Shown: positions 5,264-49,593 of the stretch, piece after piece | Numbering within the stretch: the first letter of the stretch is position 1 | Layout of the letters: every line of letters starts with the position of its first letter | DNA from: an uncultured bacterium | GTDB taxonomy: Bacteria; Planctomycetota; UBA1135; GCA-002686595 | Assembly (NCBI GenBank): GCA_943787795.1 | Contig: CALSNU010000002.1 | Coordinates: 448,001 to 512,000 of the forward strand | Direction of reading: 5' to 3' | DNA: 64,000 nucleotides | Translations under genes and position numbers: made by a program | The notes under the pieces: model-generated | Told to the model about the DNA's origin: nothing | Databases searched by the model: none | What the model saw: the letters and a program-made list of their open reading frames with translations, nothing else

Positions 5264-6298
5264 ATGCCCAGCAGCTCCTGGATCAAGAGACTCGCGCCCG
5301 CGGCGGGGTGCCTCGCCGTCGCCCTCGTGTCCACCGCCGTGGCCCGGGTCGAACCCCAGGACCGTGACGGCATCGCCGAGCGTATGGCTCGAGCCGCCCA
5401 GTCGATGCTCGCGGCGCTCCCGGACAAGCTGAGCAGCAACGCGAGAGCTGCCCACGGGGACCCGGAGCGGACCCAGTGGGCCTTCGGCCCCGTCCAGCGC
5501 GAAGGGCTCGCCATCGGCGCGCTTGACGAGGATCAGGTCGCGGCGCTCGAGGAGCTCCTGGACACGGCCCTCTCCACCGATGGCATGACCATGTGGCGGC
5601 AGGTCAGGCGCCTGGAGACGGAACTCCGACGACTCGAGTCCACGCCGGAGAAGGTCGCGACCCACCGCGACCCGGACCTCTACTGGCTCCGGGTGTACGG
5701 TGAGCCTGGCCCCGAGCAGCGGTGGTCCTGGCGCTTCGAGGGCCACCACCTCGCGCTCCATGTGGACTGCCGCGCCGGGCGCACGCCGAGCGTCACCCCC
5801 TTCTTCGTAGGGGCACGTCCCGTGCTCGCGGTCCCCAACTCAGCAGACCCCGAGGCCAGCGCCCCGAGGTCGACGGTCGACGTCTTCGGGGCCCTCAATG
5901 AGGACTATCGCTCTGCCCTTGAGGGCGGAGGCGACGCGCTCCCCGAGTCCGAGCAGCCCCGTCCCAGGGACATCCGGATGGGGCCTGGCAGCGACTCGTT
6001 GCCTGGGGAGGACGGCGTGCGGTTCGCCGACCTCAAGCCAGAGGTGCGCGAGGGCATCGCGGCCCTCATGAGCACCTACCTTGAGCTGCTCGACGAGCCG
6101 CTGCGCGTCCCCTACAGCTTCGACCCCCAGCGAGCCGGCGCCGTGCGCTTCATGCGCTGGGGGGGGAGCGACCTCGATGGGCCCAGGGCATGGACCCTGC
6201 TCACCCCGAGGTTCGCGCTCGAGCTCTTCACGACCGATGGGCCCAACCACGTCCACGCGGTCCTCCGCGACGTCGACCGGGACTTCGGCGGCGAGTAG
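5264..6298 (+). CDS. Secreted DUF3500-like protein
   Basis: Signal peptide; RDPDLYWLRVYGEP, WSWRFEGHHL, NHVHAVLRD..DFG motifs. Confidence 0.7.
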   Translation: MPSSSWIKRLAPAAGCLAVALVSTAVARVEPQDRDGIAERMARAAQSMLAALPDKLSSNARAAHGDPERTQWAFGPVQREGLAIGALDEDQVAALEELLDTALSTDGMTMWRQVRRLETELRRLESTPEKVATHRDPDLYWLRVYGEPGPEQRWSWRFEGHHLALHVDCRAGRTPSVTPFFVGARPVLAVPNSADPEASAPRSTVDVFGALNEDYRSALEGGGDALPESEQPRPRDIRMGPGSDSLPGEDGVRFADLKPEVREGIAALMSTYLELLDEPLRVPYSFDPQRAGAVRFMRWGGSDLDGPRAWTLLTPRFALELFTTDGPNHVHAVLRDVDRDFGGE

Positions 6299-31145: not shown

Positions 31146-31165
31146 GAGGCTCCGCGCGGAGCCTC
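31146..31165. terminator. Inverted repeat between the convergent peptidase and dsbD genes
   Basis: gaggctcc-gcgc-ggagcctc. Confidence 0.45.
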
Positions 31166-33749
31166 AGCGAGCCTCGAGGTCCTCGGTGACCACGGTCATG
31201 AACTCGACGAAGGGCGACCAGTCCTTGATGGTCCCACCCTTGAAGCGGCCGAGCTCCTCCTCGGAGGAGGGGTCCACCGCCACGTAGATGGGCTGGGCGG
31301 GGCTGCCCGCGAGGGTTTCGATCAGGCCCGCGATGCGCTCGCGGAGCGCGAGGTCGTGGGCGTCCGAGTGGAGCCGGGCCTCGACCCAGCGTTGCTTGAG
31401 GGCGCGGACTTCAGGCTTGGGGAAGATGGAGACCTCCATCTTGCGGCAGACCACTCATGTGTGGCCGGTGAAGTTCACCAGCACACCCAGCCCCCGTTCA
31501 CGCGCGACCCTGAGGGCCAGGTCGTAGTCGTCCACCACCACCAGCGAGCCTCCCTGTCGCTTCACTCCTGCGGGAAGGGCCTGGCTGCTGCCGCCGCTGA
31601 CGACCTCGGCCTTGTGGGTCTCCACGAGGCCCCGGGAGTACTCGGGAGGCGGCGCCATGGCCGACATGATCGTCTCGTCGAGGTGGTAACCGAGGACGCC
31701 CATGAAGCAGTAGGCGGAGCCGATCAGGGTGACCAGGCCGCCGCAGAGCCGGCCCGGTCCGATCTCCCCGTCCGGGGACTCGCCCTTCAGGTTGATGCGG
31801 CCGAACAGGTACATGGCCGCGGCGAGGCCGATGGCCGCCCACATCATCAGGAAGACCTCGCGCGGCAGCCAGCCGGCCTGCAGGGCGATGTCCGCGTTGG
31901 AGAAGAACTTCAGCGCCGCCGCGAGCTCCACGAAGCCCATGAAGACCTTGAGCGTGTTCATCCATCCGCCAGCGGAGGGGATCGCGCTCAGGCGGCTGGG
32001 GATCAGCGCCAGGACGACGAACGGCGCTGCCATGGTCGCGCCGAACACCCCCATGCCGATCACGATTCGCATCACGCCGCCGCTGGCGCCGGCGGCGATC
32101 AGGGTGCCGACGAAGGGACCGGTGCAGGTGAAGCTCGTGATCACCAGGGTCAGGCCCATGAGGAAGACCCCGTAGATCCCGCCCGTGCCGCTGGCCTTGC
32201 CCGCGGCACCCATGAGGAACTGGGGCGGGTTGAGCGTGATCGCACCGAAGAGCGCCAGGGCGAAGACCACGAACAGGACGCCGATGAACAGGTTCGTCAC
32301 GTAGTGCGTGGCGAAGGGCACCAGCAGGGGCCCGGCGAGGACCCCTAGCAGCACGAACATCAGCACGATCCCGAGCCCGTACACCGAGGCGAGCAGGAGC
32401 GCGTTGCCGCCCTTCTCGTCCGCCTGCTTGGTGAAGAAGGAGATCGTGATGGGGATCATCGGGTAGGTGCAGGGCATCAGCAGGGTGAAGAGCCCCGCGC
32501 CGATGGCCAGCAGGATGAACTCCAGCAGCCCGTCGCTCTCGGTCTCCTGGCCGAAGGAGCGCTTCTCGCCATCCTCCACCGGGGCCTCGATCGTGGGCGT
32601 CGACTCCGCCGCGCCGACGACCGCCCCGGCGTCGGTCTCGGTGTCGGTCTCGGCGTCAGTGCCAGTGCCAGTGCCAGTGCCACTACCGGCATCGGGAACA
32701 GCGCCAGGTTCCGTGGCTGCCCCTGCGCCGCCGCTGGCCGCCTGCGGGAGCGTCCATGTGGCGAAGGCCGCCGCGAACAGTGCGTCCGAGCCGGACCCCA
32801 CGACCTCGATGCCGGAGAATTTCACCGGGAGGCAGGCGCCGTCGTCGCAGGACTGGCCGTCGAGGCCAATCTCCAGGTCACCCGGATCGAAGTCGTCGAA
32901 GGCTTCACCGCGGAGGGCGAAGTGGAAGAGGCCCTCGTGGGCCCAGAGCCAGACCTCCTTCGAGTCCGGGTCTTGGGGGTCCTTCTCCTCCTGGACGTAG
33001 CGGAAGGGCTCGGGATACTGAACCTCGTCCTCCCAGTCCACGTTGCCGCCCTCGACGGTGACGGTGGTCGGGGTCCCGATCCCCGGACCCATGTCCTCGG
33101 CGGTGGGGCCGTGGTACATGTGCCAGTGCTCCGGCGTCGCCACCTGCACCACGAGCTCGACGATCTCGCCGTCGTCCCCGTCAAGCACCCTCGCGAACGC
33201 CCGCGCCGCCGCCGCCTCGTCGCCGAAGTCAGGGCTCCAGGTCAGCGGGTCCTCCTCGGGCTCGGCCAGCAGCGACTCGGGGAAGCCCTCCCAGACCGAC
33301 TCCGGCCCAGCCCCGAGGGTCGCGAGGTCCTCCTCAAAGGGGAGGCACTGGTTCTCGTCGCAGACCTGCCCCTCGACGAAGGCGCTGATCGCCCCGGCGT
33401 CCACGCCGGCGGCCGCGGCGCCCCGAGCGGCGGCGAACAGGTAGGTCTTCTTGTCGAAGACGCGCGCCGGCCCGTAGCCCTCGTCCGGCTTCACCTTGGG
33501 CTCGGGGTACCAGACCTCGGTCCACGCTGCGCCCTCAAGCTCCCCGGGGGTCACCGTGGTCGGCAGCCCACCGACCTCGCTGGGGTCCCCCTGGTCATAG
33601 ACCCAGCAGCCGAAGGACGGCCGGACCTGAACGGCCATGAGCACGTCGTCCCCGACGGCCTTCGAGAACAGCTTGACCTTGACGGACTGGGCGCTCGCGG
33701 GTGCAAGGGCCGAGAGTGCGACGAGGAGGAGAGTGAGGAGTCGAGACAT
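31164..33749 (-). CDS. dsbD: DsbD-type protein-disulfide reductase, probable selenoprotein (in-frame TGA at 31455-31457, UxxC)
   Basis: Signal peptide; two Cx4C N-domains; transmembrane PCTYP and CTGP; thioredoxin domain NFTGHT-TGA-VVCRKME continues in frame to 31164. Confidence 0.88.
31423..31442 (-). promoter_or_regulatory. Candidate bacterial SECIS hairpin of dsbD
   Basis: Starts 12 nt after UGA: AAGAUGGA-GGUC-UCCAUCUU, perfect 8-bp stem with a G-initiated loop. Confidence 0.7.
32630..32686 (-). repeat. Coding microsatellite linker in dsbD (GTGTGTGT, TDAE/TDTE)
   Basis: About four gtgcca copies plus gtcggtctcg repeats. Confidence 0.6.
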
Positions 33750-43668: not shown

Positions 43669-46600
43669 TCAGTCGAAGGACTGGGACCAGGTCGCGTCCC
43701 CGCCGCGCACGCGGAAGTCCCAGCTGAACCGGTCCCCCACGCTCGTCTGCCCCGGGGCCATCACGACCCAGAGCACGTCCCCCGGCTCCATCCAGACGGG
43801 GCCCGAGGTGACGGCGGGCGGCCCGGCAGCGGGGAGGGACTGCTCGAAGAGGGTGGTCGGCGCGCCGCCTGCGACCCGACCGTGGAGCACGCGGGCGATC
43901 AGCTCAGCGCCCGCCACCTGGGTCGAGGCGAGCCCCTCCACCAGATAGAACCCCGCCCGCTGGACCGAGTACCCCGCGGCGACCACGCCCTGGTGCGCCC
44001 CGGGCGCCGCCTCGAGCGCGCCGGGCCCAGGACTGCCGACGCCGCTGGCGATCCACCCATCCGCCGGGGTGGGCCCCGTGTACCTGCGACCCGCGGCGTC
44101 CCAGGTCAGGGCCACGTACTCGTCCGGGTCAAGGGAGTCGCCGAGGTCGTTCCGGCGAAGGAACCAGCCGTCGGAAGGCGAGCCCTGGCGGAAGAGGTCC
44201 GCCGACGTGGCGACCGTGCGCGGGGCGCCGCCCGCCACCGTGAACGGGACCGACGAGGTGACCCCGCCCGCCGGCGTGGCGTCGAGCTGGTACTCGCCAG
44301 GCTGAAGGTCGAAGGCTGGAACGCCCGGTCCGAAGAGCCGGTAGGGGCCGTGGGCCGCCGTCCTGCGATGAAGCTCGACCGGGGCGGACCCGCCAGTGTC
44401 CAGCAGCACAAGCTCAACGTCCCCCTGGGCCACGTCGAGGTTCACCCGGAGGTCCACCTCCCCCGTCCCGAGCCGCAGTGGGTCGAGCTGCTGGCCGGCC
44501 GCCAACGCGCCGATGACCCCGTCGCCGGACATCAACGAGACCGCGCGAACCTCGGCGGTACGCCCGTCCCATCGGTCGAGGAGCCAGCGGTCCACCAGCA
44601 CCGGCGAGCCGTCCACGGGGCGCGGCTCATCGGGCCGCGGCCGCGGGGAGCCGCCGGCGTCGACGATCCCGTTGGGGATCGCCCCGCCGATCCGAGCGGG
44701 GGGCTGGGAGGGCTGACGCCGCGGGTCGCGGAGCGCCGCGAGTCCGGGCCGGTAGGTGAGCGCGTCGAGCCCGAGCCCGCCCGGAGCCCCCGCGGTGTGA
44801 CAGCTCAGGCAGAAGCGGTTCGCGCTCGAGTCCGGCCGCGGCCGGTCCTGGAAGACGGGGCCCTCGGGGAAGTGCACGGCCGACCGCAGGTGGCGCGCGC
44901 CCGAGGGGATCGAGACCCGGTGGACCCCGAGGTCCCTGGTGGCGTCCACGAAGGACGCGTAGCGCTCCTCCGCCGGCTCACCGCGGCGCCGCAGGGCCTC
45001 GCTCAGCTCCCCGTGGGCCCAGTCGGGGAAGCTCGCTGCCACCTGGTCCATCCAGCGCGTGGACTGAGCCGACTCGTCGAACCCGATCAGAGTGCCCCGG
45101 GCGTGGTTGGCCGCGGTCTCAGGGTCCACGTCGTGGGCCAGGACCTTGAACTCGTCCACCCAGCCCCGCAGCGAGGTGGCGCCGGCGGCCGCCGCCCCAC
45201 CCACGGTGATGGCTCCCGCGGAGGCGAGCGGCTGGAAGATGGACCGGGAGGGGTCCTGCCAGCGGTCCATGGGGAATCCGTCCAGGAGCAGCGTGACCCG
45301 CCGCCCCGCGCGCTCGATGCGCAGGCCCAGGTGGGTCCAGGCGCCCTCGCGGAAGAAGCCGTGCACCTCGGGCGCCTGGCCCCCGTCCGGGACGTAGCTG
45401 AAGTCGTCGGGGAGCAGGACACGGTGGAGCACGCGGTCGCCCTTCATGTACCGGAGCGAGGACCGCCCCAGCAGCTCGACGGACGTGCCGTCAGGGAAGG
45501 TGACCAGGGGCCGCCGCTCCCCATCGTCGGCGAAGCGGCAGTCCACGAAGAGGCCGACATAGAACGCCTCAGGGTCAGGGACCCCGGGCCCGGCCCTGTC
45601 GGGGGCGTCGAAGCGCAGGCTCAGCCCGTCCTCGAGCCAAAGGCCCCGACCGTACACGCCGCCGAGGGCCGCCGGCTCGAGGCGACCCGTGGAGCCGCCG
45701 GTGGCAACGAGTTCGCCGAAGGCCGGCAGGCGCCAGCGGTCCGCGTCGGTCGCGGCGTTCTGCAGGTGCACCGGGAGGTCGAAGGCGCGGGTCACCGGGT
45801 TCCAGCCGGAGCGGTGCTCGAGGTCGTTGAACCCGGGCCCCGCGAGATCGGGGAGCGTGAGCCGGCCGTTCATCTCGGCCACGATGAGCGCGCCGGGGTC
45901 GAGCAGGTCGTCGAAGGCCACCTCGTCGGTGTGCTTGCCGTTCTGGACGTGCCACACGACATCCCGGAGGCGCAGCGGCCGGAGGCGGTCCGCGATGTGC
46001 AGCTTGCTCTCGGTCGACTCGATCACCGAGCTGTTCCCGTTGACACCCGAGGGCAGGCCCGGGGTCTCTGACGCCCTGCCGTAGCCGAGCCGAACCCAGC
46101 CGCTGGTCGGGTCCAGGGAGGGCACCCCTGACCCTTCGAACAGGCGCACCAGCCGCTGCTGCGGCCCGACGTTGTAGGGCGCCCCGCCGTACGAGCTCGC
46201 CTCGGAGTGGCCGATGGCGAAGTCCATGTCGTTCAGGAGGCCATCGAGCAGCACCGTCTTGCCTCGGGTCCAGAGGCCCGCCACCGCCACCCCCTGAAAC
46301 GTCCGGCTCGACTCGGCCCCCCAGCGCTCCCTCGGGTCGCCAGGGACGCCCACGGCCTCGTAGCGAGTCTCGGTCCACTCCGCGGCGCTCTGCGGGTCGC
46401 GGTTGGGGAACTGCGGGTTGGGGTCCTGCAGGTGCAGGGTGTCGCCAATCGTGGTGTAGAAGAGATTGCGCGCACCACGGTCGATCCAGGGGTAGGCACC
46501 ACCGAGATCCTCCCAGTCCGGCACGACCTGCCCATCCGGCGCGCGGAAGGGGAACTGCGCGAAGCCGAAGCCCCCCAGCTCCATGGGTCCGTTCAGCCGC

Positions 46601-47457
46601 GGGTCATGGGGCGCATGACTGATCGGGAACACCTCGGTCCAGTGGGCCGGATTGGCGCTTCCTCGGGTCCCTGCGGGGTCCTCGTAGTAGGAGTAGACGA
46701 TGTCCGCCGCCCCCGGCCCCGACGGCGTCGGGAGGTCTGCGGAACGAATTCGCATGACGAGCAGCCGACCGTCCCCCGCGACCATGGGCTCGAAGCCGCC
46801 GCCCGAGTGGAAGGCGCCCGTGGCGAGCTCGGAGAAGTTCGGGCCCGCGATCGTGGGTCCCTCCACCTCGATGCTCGCGATACGCGCCCCGGCCGTCTTC
46901 GGGGCGGCGACCTCGATGGCGAGCGGCGTCATGAACAGCTGCAGGCTACCGCCGGGCCCCCGCGTGGTCACCACGGCCTTGACCTGGTAGCGGTCCCGTC
47001 CGGCGGGCGTGCGGATCGGGAGCTCGTCGTCCCAGAAGCAGCTCTGAATGATCTCTCGCCCTGTGCCCGCCGCGAGGATCTGGGCCTGCGTGACCGGGTC
47101 ACCGCCCACGTAGGCCCAGCCGGTCCAGCGAAGGTTGGCCTCGCCGGGAGGCTGCAGCATGAGCGGGGCGCCGCCGCCCCGGCGACGGAGCTTCTCCGGA
47201 GTGAAGAGGGTGAAGCGCGGCGCGCGCGCCACCGTCATGGCCAGACGGCCATCCTGCGACGTCCGGAATGCAGGCAGGTGAGGGCGCTGGAAGCGGGGGT
47301 CGTGATCCTGCTCGAGCGGCCCCCCCTCATCGAGGACCCCGGTCACCTCTCTCCAGATCGAGGGGGACTCGGGAAGCGATTGCCCCGCTCCCAGGGGTGC
47401 GAGGAGGCCCGAGATGAGCGCCAGCACTCCAGCCCTTCCCTTGCTCGTCATTCGCAT
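43669..47457 (-). CDS. Large secreted hypothetical protein with a LamG-like segment and one CxxCH heme c motif
   Basis: Signal peptide; WTHLGL..LLDG..LRGWVDEFKV; FCLSCH. Confidence 0.75.
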   Translation of the reverse strand: MRMTSKGRAGVLALISGLLAPLGAGQSLPESPSIWREVTGVLDEGGPLEQDHDPRFQRPHLPAFRTSQDGRLAMTVARAPRFTLFTPEKLRRRGGGAPLMLQPPGEANLRWTGWAYVGGDPVTQAQILAAGTGREIIQSCFWDDELPIRTPAGRDRYQVKAVVTTRGPGGSLQLFMTPLAIEVAAPKTAGARIASIEVEGPTIAGPNFSELATGAFHSGGGFEPMVAGDGRLLVMRIRSADLPTPSGPGAADIVYSYYEDPAGTRGSANPAHWTEVFPISHAPHDPRLNGPMELGGFGFAQFPFRAPDGQVVPDWEDLGGAYPWIDRGARNLFYTTIGDTLHLQDPNPQFPNRDPQSAAEWTETRYEAVGVPGDPRERWGAESSRTFQGVAVAGLWTRGKTVLLDGLLNDMDFAIGHSEASSYGGAPYNVGPQQRLVRLFEGSGVPSLDPTSGWVRLGYGRASETPGLPSGVNGNSSVIESTESKLHIADRLRPLRLRDVVWHVQNGKHTDEVAFDDLLDPGALIVAEMNGRLTLPDLAGPGFNDLEHRSGWNPVTRAFDLPVHLQNAATDADRWRLPAFGELVATGGSTGRLEPAALGGVYGRGLWLEDGLSLRFDAPDRAGPGVPDPEAFYVGLFVDCRFADDGERRPLVTFPDGTSVELLGRSSLRYMKGDRVLHRVLLPDDFSYVPDGGQAPEVHGFFREGAWTHLGLRIERAGRRVTLLLDGFPMDRWQDPSRSIFQPLASAGAITVGGAAAAGATSLRGWVDEFKVLAHDVDPETAANHARGTLIGFDESAQSTRWMDQVAASFPDWAHGELSEALRRRGEPAEERYASFVDATRDLGVHRVSIPSGARHLRSAVHFPEGPVFQDRPRPDSSANRFCLSCHTAGAPGGLGLDALTYRPGLAALRDPRRQPSQPPARIGGAIPNGIVDAGGSPRPRPDEPRPVDGSPVLVDRWLLDRWDGRTAEVRAVSLMSGDGVIGALAAGQQLDPLRLGTGEVDLRVNLDVAQGDVELVLLDTGGSAPVELHRRTAAHGPYRLFGPGVPAFDLQPGEYQLDATPAGGVTSSVPFTVAGGAPRTVATSADLFRQGSPSDGWFLRRNDLGDSLDPDEYVALTWDAAGRRYTGPTPADGWIASGVGSPGPGALEAAPGAHQGVVAAGYSVQRAGFYLVEGLASTQVAGAELIARVLHGRVAGGAPTTLFEQSLPAAGPPAVTSGPVWMEPGDVLWVVMAPGQTSVGDRFSWDFRVRGGDATWSQSFD

Positions 47458-47475: not shown

Positions 47476-48495
47476 TCAGCGGGACATGGCTTCGAGGAAG
47501 GCCACGAGCTGCGCGGCCTCTTCGTCCGTGAGCTCGATCGCGTCCATGCGATCGGAGAGGTGGGCGTTCGCGTTGCCTCCCTCGCGGTAGAAGTCGACGA
47601 CCTCGGCGAGGGTCGCGAGGCTACCGTCGTGCATGTAGGGAGCCGTCTTGGTGAGCATGCGGAGCCCTGGCGTGCGGAAGCGCCCCTGGTCTCCATCCTG
47701 GCCCGTGATCGCGAAGCGACCCGGCTCAGGTGCGCCGTCGATCACGCCGACGCCGGTGTTGTGGAACGACTCATCGCTGAAGTTGGGCCCGTTGTGGCAC
47801 CGCCAGCAGCGGCCCCGGCCCTCGTAGATCCAGAGCCCCGCCTCCTCGTCCGCGGAGAGGGCCTCGACGTCGCCGTCGCGAAAGCGGTCCACCGGCGAGT
47901 CGCCCACCGTCAGACCGCGCACGAAGCCGGCCAGCGCTGCCGCGAGCGCCGCGTCGTCCACCTCGCGCCCGAAGGCCTTCTGGAACTGCGCAGCGTAGGA
48001 CGGGTCGCTGGAGAGCCTGTTGACCGCCGCGGCCTTGCCCAGCCCCATCTCCTCCGGGTTCTCGATGGGCATCAGCACCTGCTCCTCGAGAGTCGCCGCC
48101 CGTCCGTCCCAGAGGACGTCCTCGCTGAGCCCCTTGTTCAGGAGCGAGGGGGCGTTGCGGACCGTGAGGTAGCCCTCGATGCCGCGGGAGAGCTTGCGGT
48201 TGTCCGCGAAGCCGAGCTCGGGTTGATGGCACGAGGCGCAGGAGACCGAGCGGCGCGGGGACAAGACCGGGTCAAAGAAGAGCCGGCGGCCCAGGTCGAA
48301 GACCTCCTGAGAGGCTCCGAAGCCCTCCGCGAGCTCCTCCACGCCGAGGGGCGCGGTGCGCACGAAGGGTGAGGGGAGGGAGTCCCGGGGAATCAGAGGG
48401 GGGCCCTCGTCGTCCTGCGCGAACTGCGCGGCGACGAGGACCGGCAAGAGGACCAGCCAGCCCAGGCGCCCCGCTCCGATTCCCCGGTCTCCCAT
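47476..48495 (-). CDS. Diheme cytochrome c peroxidase/MauG family enzyme
   Basis: CASCH, RNAPSL, WDGRA, CWRCH, FRTPGLR, PYMHDG...DFY. Confidence 0.9.
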   Translation of the reverse strand: MGDRGIGAGRLGWLVLLPVLVAAQFAQDDEGPPLIPRDSLPSPFVRTAPLGVEELAEGFGASQEVFDLGRRLFFDPVLSPRRSVSCASCHQPELGFADNRKLSRGIEGYLTVRNAPSLLNKGLSEDVLWDGRAATLEEQVLMPIENPEEMGLGKAAAVNRLSSDPSYAAQFQKAFGREVDDAALAAALAGFVRGLTVGDSPVDRFRDGDVEALSADEEAGLWIYEGRGRCWRCHNGPNFSDESFHNTGVGVIDGAPEPGRFAITGQDGDQGRFRTPGLRMLTKTAPYMHDGSLATLAEVVDFYREGGNANAHLSDRMDAIELTDEEAAQLVAFLEAMSR

Positions 48496-48501
48496 GTCTC
48501 G

Positions 48502-49593
48502 CTACTTGCCCTTGGCCTTGGCCTTGGCCTTCGCCAAGAGGTCCGCGACGACGGCATCGATGTCCGTGCCGGAGTGACCGCGGTAGGCGATGGTGCCGTC
48601 CGTGTCGAGCACGAGGTACGTGGGGTAGCCCCGGACCTTGTAGAGGTCCGAGATCGGCGTCATGGCCTGGCCCTGGAAGGCGCTCAGCCAGGTGAGGCCG
48701 AACTCCTTGACGCCCTCGTGGTAGGCGTCGGGCGCGTCGCCAGTGTTGATTCCGATGAGGGCGAAGGGGTCGTTTTCGTGACGCTCAACGAGCGTCTTAA
48801 GGTGCGGCATGCCGCGCCTGCAGGGGGGTCACCAGAACCCGTAGAAGTCGAGGGCCACGACCTTGCCGCGGTAGTCCTCGATGGAAAACTGGAAGCCGTC
48901 GATCGTCTCACCGACGAAGGTGGGAGCGACCTTGCCGACCTCGGAGTCCTCGGGCGTTGCCTTCGAGGCGCGGGCGGCGGTGCCGTACACGGTGTTCGAG
49001 TACTTCTCACCGATCTCGTCCATCCACTTCTTGGCGCGATCAGGGTCGCTGTCCCCCACGATCGTGGCGGCGAAGAAGAGCGACGCGGCCTTGGCGTTGT
49101 CCGACTTGGCGGTCTTGGCCGCCTTCTCGAGCATGGCCACGGACTCTTCGATCCCGACGTACTTCTTGTTGGCGTTGAGGCTCTTGACCGCGCTGGTGAA
49201 CCACTCGGCGTCCGCGTGGTTGTCGATGATCGACTGGAACAGCGGCGTGAGGACGGCGCCGCGCTCCTTCGAGCGCACGTCGCGGTTCTCCTTGATGTGA
49301 TCCACGAGCCAGAGCGTCGCGCGACCCTCGCCGGCCTTGGACATGGCCTCGAAGCGCGGCCAGTAGCGCTTGATCGGCGAATTGCCCCGGAGCTCGCGGC
49401 GCTGCGCCTTGTCGGCCGCCTTGAGCTCCTTGGTGTACTCGACGAGGGCGGCCTCGAACTCCGTGTCGAGGGCTGTGAAGTCGTCGATGGGCGACGCCGA
49501 AGCCGAAGCAACGGGCACCTCCCTGACGATGGGATCGGCCGCGTACGCGACCATGGGAATCAGTGCGACTCCCAGGATGGACTTGAATCTCAT
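48502..49593 (-). CDS. Secreted TlpA-like thioredoxin-fold protein, probable selenoprotein (in-frame TGA at 48829-48831, UPPC)
   Basis: APTF..DYRGKVVALDFYGFW-TGA-PPCRRGMPHL..IGIN..YKVRGYPTYLVLD; the two track ORFs are in the same frame. Confidence 0.88.
48800..48819 (-). promoter_or_regulatory. Candidate SECIS hairpin of the TlpA-like gene
   Basis: Starts 9 nt after UGA: AGG-C-GCGG-CAUG-CCGC-A-CCU. Confidence 0.45.

Follow-up and report, generated by a model that had tools for sequence, protein, structure and literature searches.

Is the TGA codon in the middle of a reading frame from an uncultured marine planctomycete the end of one gene and the border of another, or does it encode the catalytic residue of a single enzyme? 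The question is raised by contig CALSNU010000002.1 (assembly GCA_943787795.1; lineage Planctomycetota; UBA1135; GCA-002686595), of which the stretch of 64,000 nt from 448,001 to 512,000 was analysed; this whole stretch is called the window, and positions follow its own numbering. On the minus strand of the window, one frame runs from the ATG at 49593 to the TAG at 48504..48502 with a single in-frame TGA at 48831..48829 (codon 255), and the listing of open reading frames (ORFs) splits the locus into a 254/280-aa ORF up to the TGA and a 102-aa ORF from the ATG at 48810. Translation of the frame confirmed the preliminary description of this locus in that the TGA stands in the context D-F-Y-G-F-W-TGA-P-P-C and that the same frame continues 3' of it through the cis-Pro loop G-Y-P-T to 48502. 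The sequence analyses reported below indicate that the apparent stop very likely encodes selenocysteine (Sec), located in the active site of a thiol-disulfide reductase that is predicted to be exported. We consider it highly probable that the locus is one gene of 363 codons, whose TGA is decoded as Sec to give a predicted exported two-domain protein of the TlpA/ResA-like type (hereafter the redoxin). An exported, Sec-containing TlpA-like thioredoxin had been proposed in the preliminary description, and the proposal is supported by the Sec/Cys pair among the homologs, the conservation of the TGA, the presence of the Sec machinery, the selection acting beyond the codon, the predicted fold, and an RNA structure that tracks the TGA.

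The homolog search covered 41 related genomes, the source genome included, 39 of which contain a homolog at E <= 1e-10. All 72 best match rows (counted from the table) carry the in-frame TGA, the first stop-free row being that of rank 73, and the motif F-(Y/F/W)-G-F-W-U-(P/G)-P-C is present in 20/20 orthologous loci, which come from separate assemblies. Cys-containing and TGA-containing counterparts, the two kinds of homologs to be looked for according to the preliminary description, were both found: at 85 aligned sites (80 loci, L021-L100) the redox codon is TGA in 63 cases, TGC or TGT (Cys) in 19 and some other codon in 3. The two parts of the protein lie in one frame with exactly one TGA between them in all 63 TGA homologs, and the Cys homologs are uninterrupted across the site; a Cys ortholog with both domains (P0016, 41% identity) reads DFYGFWCVPC. 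Cys258, P324 and T325 are invariant in the alignment (A4). Purifying selection acts on the part 3' of the TGA: over the 100 codons that follow it, the ratios of synonymous to non-synonymous changes in seven close orthologs are 17:6, 17:2, 12:1, 17:8, 16:6, 10:8 and 23:9, and the C-terminal piece is 90-98% identical in close orthologs, vs 79-90% for the N-terminal piece.

Contigs of three public sequencing runs, comprising DNA and RNA libraries (X6 record 29, X17 record 13, X18 record 22), span the TGA unchanged; the RNA-library contigs, which extend over the gene and across the UGA, are no proof of Sec insertion and may stem from carried-over DNA. The X15 contigs end near the UGA (48822, 48829), which is read as assembly fragmentation only. 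The C-terminal tail of the protein, K-A-K-A-K-A-K-G-K (an AAGGCC repeat, window 48488..48575), exhibits very high summed depth in four runs; this depth stems from short unrelated contigs and is a low-complexity artefact, not expression.

The same genome encodes the components required for Sec insertion, all scoring above the curated cut-offs: selA (456.6 bits), selB (327.9 bits), selD (327.2 bits, with an in-frame TGA of its own) and a tRNA-Sec with the anticodon TCA (69 bits). TGA terminates four of the five neighbouring genes, namely gyrA, yqeY, a MauG-like gene and a gene for a 1262-aa protein. Since TGA is the ordinary stop of these neighbours, the recoding would be site-specific and would involve no change of the code. 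According to the criteria set out in PMC13188914, a Sec/Cys pair, conservation and machinery, all of which were found here, are the accepted computational grounds for calling a bacterial selenoprotein.

Comparison of the read-through product with Pfam identified AhpC-TSA (8e-15), Redoxin and Thioredoxin_8 over residues 219-340. Its closest solved relatives by sequence are ResA (4nmu as the best match, 4.9e-16), other extracytoplasmic thioredoxins, DsbE/CcmG and TlpA, and in the alignment the TGA column coincides with the first Cys of W-C-x-P-C in the solved ResA-type relatives. The AlphaFold2 model of the whole protein, based on 19 aligned sequences (predicted local distance difference test, pLDDT, 89.5; predicted template modelling score, pTM, 0.82), shows residues 1-32 as disordered, residues 38-217 as all-helical, and residues 219-362 as a thioredoxin fold. 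The thioredoxin domain superposes on DsbE (3gl3_A, Z 20.9, root-mean-square deviation 1.6 over 136 residues), ResA (2f9s_A, Z 20.6), CcmG (1kng_A, Z 17.6), the CcmG-DsbD complex (1z5y_E, Z 16.1) and TlpA (1jfu_A, Z 15.7). All curated NCBIfam cut-offs are missed by the redoxin (ResA 74.5 bits against 170, TlpA 50.4 against 230, DsbE 29.8 against 123), and the peroxiredoxin motif P-x-x-x-T-x-x-C(U) is absent: the sequence preceding U is L-D-F-Y-G-F-W, which lacks both the Pro at -7 and the Thr at -3, and U occupies the thioredoxin CxxC position. It follows that the redoxin falls within the TlpA-like superfamily (cd02966) and is an ortholog of no named enzyme, and it belongs to the already catalogued UxxC kind of selenoproteins.

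The helical domain mentioned in the preliminary description is seen in the AlphaFold2 model as helices over residues 38-217, and when modelled alone it reaches a pLDDT of 94.4. It has no Pfam match, and the structure search returned only generic rows resembling tetratricopeptide (TPR) or HEAT repeats. No family was assigned to this domain, because the best of these rows (Z 9.8) is below the bar for helical repeats. The signal peptide, likewise described earlier, agrees with the N-terminus, MRFKSILGVALIPMVAYA/AD, which looks signal-peptide-like when read by eye; the orthologs are similar in this respect, the close ones keeping the N-terminus MRFK...

Which RNA element would direct the recoding? 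Two hairpins follow the UGA. Hairpin 1, the one pointed out in the preliminary description, starts 9 nt after the UGA and has its CAUG loop 17 nt from it; hairpin 2 is placed 16 nt further on and has a 7-bp stem with a 3-nt GUU loop. Because of its covariation, its G-U loop and its restriction to TGA-bearing genes, hairpin 2 is the best candidate for the selenocysteine insertion sequence (SECIS), and thus likely the element bound by SelB. It folds with -11.0 kcal/mol (-9.5 in the evaluation of the hairpin), with z -3.94 and 0/200 shuffles as stable. Among 33 homologs it keeps one register, in which 88.3% of cells are paired, vs 31.6-57.1% in slid registers. Two pairs show compensatory changes (G-C/A-U/U-A and C-G/A-U), with 17 cells changed on both sides, a value reached by 0/500 shuffles, and some of them change both encoded amino acids (e.g. 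GAG...CUC for ACG...CGU). At least six of the seven pairs, in one of two registers, are formed in 48 of 55 unique TGA sequences, vs 0/19 Cys sequences. The second register is that of a paralog group, in which the hairpin CACGAGC-GGUC-GCUCGUG lies three codons earlier, at 31 nt from the UGA; GGUC is the loop of the classic SECIS of E. coli fdhF.

Hairpin 2 also conforms to criteria i, ii and iv for bacterial SECIS (bSECIS) elements, as tested here: a loop of 3-9 nt, a stem of 4-16 bp, a G as one of the first two loop nucleotides and a minimum free energy <= -7.5. A scan with these criteria identified a hairpin in 43/55 TGA sequences vs 0/19 Cys sequences, at spacings of 31 nt (20 sequences), 38 nt (12) and 39 nt (11). 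Criterion iii, as worded in PMC13188914, places the apical loop 16-37 nt from the UGA for "most" elements, and other classes exist.

Could hairpin 1 instead be the SelB-binding SECIS of this selenoprotein, with hairpin 2 being accessory or serving another purpose? Its spacing of 17 nt falls inside the 16-37 nt window, some hairpin is found at its place in every ortholog, and the GGUC hairpin located 20 nt after the UGA in the DsbD gene of the same genome suggests that short spacings work in this organism. Moreover, its region folds better in TGA genes (-8.8 kcal/mol; orthologs alone, -11.8) than in Cys homologs of equal G+C (-5.4 kcal/mol), and the first 50 nt past the UGA form a more stable structure than windows of the same length taken upstream or further downstream in these genes. 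On the other hand, the CAUG loop lacks the G that criterion ii demands in its first two positions, and its register is not the same in all orthologs (i+j from 59 to 68). The covariation analysis suggested for this hairpin in the preliminary description turned out negative, with 47.6% of cells paired in a fixed register across the 33 homologs, i.e. no better than the slid controls (39.0-52.8%). Taken alone, hairpin 1 (-10.5 kcal/mol) reaches only z -1.39, with 18/200 shuffles as stable, and the scan modelled on the bSECIS criteria found no qualifying hairpin at its spacing in any of the 55 TGA sequences. We therefore regard hairpin 1 as an improbable SECIS: the hairpin noticed earlier exists, 9 nt after the UGA and with the CAUG loop as described, but it is probably not the one bound by SelB. 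As its region is also structured in TGA genes, a two-hairpin element is possible. The 66-nt stretch after the UGA, when folded whole, has z -1.05, and the signal emerges with the hairpins taken singly. Rfam models at gathering thresholds gave no match in the window, but they are not expected to catch short bacterial SECIS elements inside ORFs.

The remaining explanations do without selenocysteine. If translation ended at the UGA, the products would be a helical protein of 254 residues and perhaps a separate one of 102 residues from the ATG at 48810, which lies 18 nt after the UGA; exactly these two pieces are given by gene callers and by the ORF list, and the closest entries in protein databases are 254-aa fragments ending at the TGA (P0002-P0007). 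Such a cut would, however, fall inside one thioredoxin fold, right before the active site, so that no functional redoxin would result from either piece, and a signal peptide would be missing from the second. The single frame with one TGA in all TGA homologs, the continuous Cys homologs, the Sec machinery and the TGA-specific hairpin also argue against termination, which we consider very improbable. Slighter still are the chances of read-through without selenium, by near-cognate insertion of Cys or Trp or by a suppressor tRNA: TGA functions as a terminator in four of the five neighbouring genes, the TGA is always found at the position of the catalytic Cys, the genome possesses a dedicated tRNA-Sec together with selA, selB and selD, and the hairpin is specific to the TGA form. 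A pseudogene or a sequencing error at the TGA, the latter reckoned with in the preliminary description, has a practically negligible probability and is refuted by the same TGA in 20/20 orthologous loci, by the unchanged codon in the contigs of three runs and by the purifying selection after it.

Several points weigh against decoding of the TGA as Sec with hairpin 2 as the SECIS, or against the function proposed for the product. The grounds for Sec at residue 255 are computational, and selA is present in 40/41 relatives, which leaves no contrast for the co-occurrence of the machinery with the TGA form. The loop of hairpin 2 begins 39 nt downstream of the UGA, or 38 nt with its closing C-G pair open, which is just outside the range of 16-37 nt. 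Its G-U is at the same time positions 1 and 2 of a conserved Val codon, so that its invariance is not independent evidence. Only two of the seven pairs vary on both sides and three never vary; 12 of the 55 TGA sequences have no hairpin in the strict perfect-stem scan; and, the homologs being kin, the Mann-Whitney and shuffle figures make the results look more significant than they are. The region of hairpin 1, being more structured in TGA than in Cys genes, may matter too. Finally, export, the donor role of DsbD and the partnership with the MauG-like protein are suggested by analogy and gene order only. The coordinates of all features are listed in Table 1.

Table 1. Features of the redoxin gene and of its downstream neighbour, in window positions
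Feature	Position	Strand	Basis or remark
Whole redoxin gene, 363 codons + TAG, one TGA predicted to be read through	48502..49593	-	Match to relatives spans residues 1-361 and includes one TGA
Predicted signal peptide, residues 1-18, A-Y-A/A	49540..49593	-	Read by eye; residues 1-32 disordered in the model
N-terminal all-helical repeat domain, residues 38-217	48943..49482	-	AlphaFold2 model; no catalogued family
TlpA/ResA/DsbE-like thioredoxin-fold domain, residues 219-363	48505..48939	-	Pfam, sequence and structure matches
UGA codon 255, predicted Sec, attacking position of W-U-P-P-C	48829..48831	-	Aligns with the first Cys of ResA W-C-x-P-C
TGC, Cys258, resolving residue of the motif	48820..48822	-	Sequence and invariance in alignment A4
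Hairpin 1, AGG.GCGG-CAUG-CCGC.CCU	48800..48819	-	Real local structure; sliding register; no G early in the loop
Hairpin 2, GACGCUC-GUU-GAGCGUC, likely SECIS core	48780..48796	-	Fold, covariation, TGA-only distribution
Cis-Pro codon, P324 of G-Y-P-T	48622..48624	-	Sequence and invariance in alignment A4
Gene of an exported MauG/CCP-family di-haem enzyme	47476..48495	-	6 nt downstream, likely co-transcribed; profile matches and gene order

Other TGA codons were found in this genome. In selD (L010:1531, G000:C5), which belongs to an undisputed family of selenoproteins, the TGA is located in A-A-C-A-G-U-A-A-K and is followed by a 5-bp hairpin with an AUG loop and then by CACGCAG-GUG-CUGCGUG, 33 nt after the UGA, i.e. 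by the same two-hairpin layout as in the redoxin. Three more TGA-containing paralogs with the thioredoxin fold (L081-L083, at C1:753527-753991, C4:789449-789850 and C6:69331-69675) exhibit the motifs F-W-G-F-W-U-G-P-C, F-F-E-Y-W-U-G-P-C and F-W-G-T-W-U-G-P-C, respectively, and two of the three have no hairpin under the strict perfect-stem scan. Two further TGA candidates in the window, at 5842 (minus strand) and 58117 (plus strand), were rejected, since their frames are non-coding and match nothing in Pfam. The true stop of the redoxin is TAG in 16 of the 20 orthologs, TAA in one and TGA in three, and four of its neighbours in the window end in TGA; this pattern may mean that a second UGA is avoided in the vicinity of the SECIS, or be due to chance.

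How large is the family? Searching 1.84 billion proteins with a profile of the helical N-terminal domain yielded 562 cluster representatives, of which 226 have E <= 1e-10. Among the best 150 of the 562 representatives, 119 end in W (117 of these in F-(Y/W/F)-G-(F/D)-W), 8 possess W-C-x-x-C, and 23 are fragments or longer forms. To judge from these endings, the W-terminated representatives are gene calls truncated immediately ahead of the redox codon, and the two-domain family, as seen at the sequence level, is large, overwhelmingly TGA-bearing, and stored in truncated form.

The product of the MauG-like gene downstream of the redoxin matches CCP_MauG (6.7e-49) as well as the MauG (5.1e-66) and MbnH (3.2e-64) models, the latter two below their curated cut-offs. 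The two genes are adjacent in 17/20 orthologous loci, the exceptions being L037, which is at a contig edge, and L039 and L040, which have no MauG-like gene; adjacency is also indicated by coordinates in G028 and G036, from another family of the order, which gives 19 genomes in total. The complex predicted for the MauG-like protein (residues 31-339) and the helical N-terminal domain scored 0.00, which speaks neither for nor against binding. In one of the relatives, a MauG-like homolog (G033:C21:9390-10367, 47% identity) itself carries one in-frame TGA and shares its contig with a TGA-redoxin 6 kb away. The gene of the 1262-aa protein (window 43669..47457, minus strand) starts 18 nt after the MauG-like gene and occupies the same place in 7/20 orthologous loci (L021-L027). 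Its product has a signal-like N-terminus and one C-x-x-C-H motif, with no match in Pfam or NCBIfam even at E <= 1, and may be a partner or substrate of the MauG-like enzyme.

The window also contains a DsbD gene (31164..33749, minus strand; domains DsbD_N, DsbD_TM and Thioredoxin_7), presumably the first hidden selenoprotein alluded to in the preliminary description. Its TGA at 31457..31455 is found in F-T-G-H-T-U-V-V-C, at the attacking position of the thioredoxin domain, and is followed by the hairpin GAUGGA-GGUC-UCCAUC, whose loop starts 20 nt after the UGA. By analogy with known DsbD pathways, this protein is a candidate electron donor for the redoxin. The literature search found no paper joining MauG, diheme and thiol-disulfide oxidoreductase, and a narrow search found none on thiol disulfide interchange selenoproteins.

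A possible course of events can be outlined as follows. SelB carrying Sec-tRNA(Sec) would bind hairpin 2 while the ribosome stands at the UGA 39 nt upstream, the variable hairpin 1 acting as a helper or as a mere spacer. The protein would then be exported via its predicted signal peptide. Sec255 would attack the disulfide of a substrate and Cys258 would resolve the mixed selenylsulfide, as do the two cysteines in ResA, CcmG and TlpA, and the oxidised motif could be re-reduced by DsbD. The helical N-terminal domain would select the client and so provide specificity; judging by gene order only, the best candidate for a partner or client would be the MauG-like di-haem enzyme, or else the 1262-aa protein. 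Or perhaps these genes form part of a larger whole? In its boldest form, the proposal would be that an uncatalogued two-domain family uses Sec near-exclusively, that its SECIS consists of two parts, the conserved G-U-loop hairpin being 38-39 nt away from the UGA, and that the redoxin, together with the Sec-DsbD and the MauG-like neighbour, forms an electron relay in the periplasm, selenium-based throughout, for a haem enzyme. In its entirety this proposal is tentative and rather unlikely; a SECIS hairpin at that distance would be beyond the window of standard searches, which would explain earlier "no SECIS" calls in planctomycetes.

Among characterised proteins, ResA, CcmG (DsbE) and TlpA (4nmu, 2f9s, 3gl3, 1kng, 1jfu) share with the redoxin the fold (Z 15.7-20.9), the position of the W-C-x-x-C motif and the cis-Pro loop, as well as the location outside the cytoplasm, which for the redoxin is a prediction; CcmG is, in addition, a known client of DsbD. 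The redoxin differs from them by Sec in place of the attacking Cys and by the added helical domain, and while the named ResA, CcmG and TlpA proteins are membrane-anchored, it appears to be soluble, with a predicted signal peptide.

Selenoproteins of the UxxC type with PF00578 or TlpA-like domains are already catalogued in Table 3 of the Sargasso Sea survey (PMC1088965), and Table 2 of an ocean survey (PMC2398784) lists "Prx-like 1" (225 sequences) and "Prx-like 3", with fusions to unknown domains mentioned. To judge from their published descriptions, the families named "Prx-like thiol:disulfide oxidoreductase" and "Thiol-disulfide isomerase-like" have in common with the redoxin the PF00578/PF08534 or cd02966 domain, Sec as the first residue of UxxC, Cys homologs, occurrence in marine bacteria, and a hairpin inside the ORF after the UGA. 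Compared with these descriptions, the protein analysed here adds an N-terminal helical-repeat domain of about 180 residues without a Pfam family and has its likely SECIS loop 38-39 nt from the UGA. S9 Table of a planctomycete genome paper from 2016 (PMC4807772) contains two candidates described as "thiol-disulfide isomerase-like thioredoxin" (the P1 candidates), with the entry "SECIS present: no". According to their table rows, they belong to the same phylum, each consists of two adjacent gene calls, and the closest database match has Cys; the redoxin differs in that a hairpin becomes visible once the spacing limit is relaxed. Hairpin 2 resembles the consensus bSECIS, as outlined in PMC13188914, in its 7-bp stem, 3-nt G-U loop and energy of -9.5 to -11 kcal/mol, and deviates from it in the spacing (39 vs 16-37 nt) and in the presence of a second, variable hairpin between the UGA and the conserved one.

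The gene is thus real and cut short in databases, and selenoproteins of its kind are already known, so the general picture of bacterial selenoproteins is unchanged. Public database entries for the redoxin, for its paralogs and for well above a hundred clusters of related proteins are fragments of 250 aa that stop one codon short of the active site, and for this reason redox inventories of marine Planctomycetota miss these redoxins; SECIS-first searches can miss the family as well, because the conserved hairpin is just outside the 16-37 nt window. What makes the locus of interest is the uncatalogued N-terminal domain of an almost all-Sec family, the hairpin slightly past the spacing window, and the MauG-like neighbour in a genome with a Sec-DsbD. 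The occurrence of a Sec-DsbD and a Sec-containing TlpA-like client in one genome, with the MauG-like gene as a fixed neighbour, points to a possible selenium-based reducing pathway in the periplasm.

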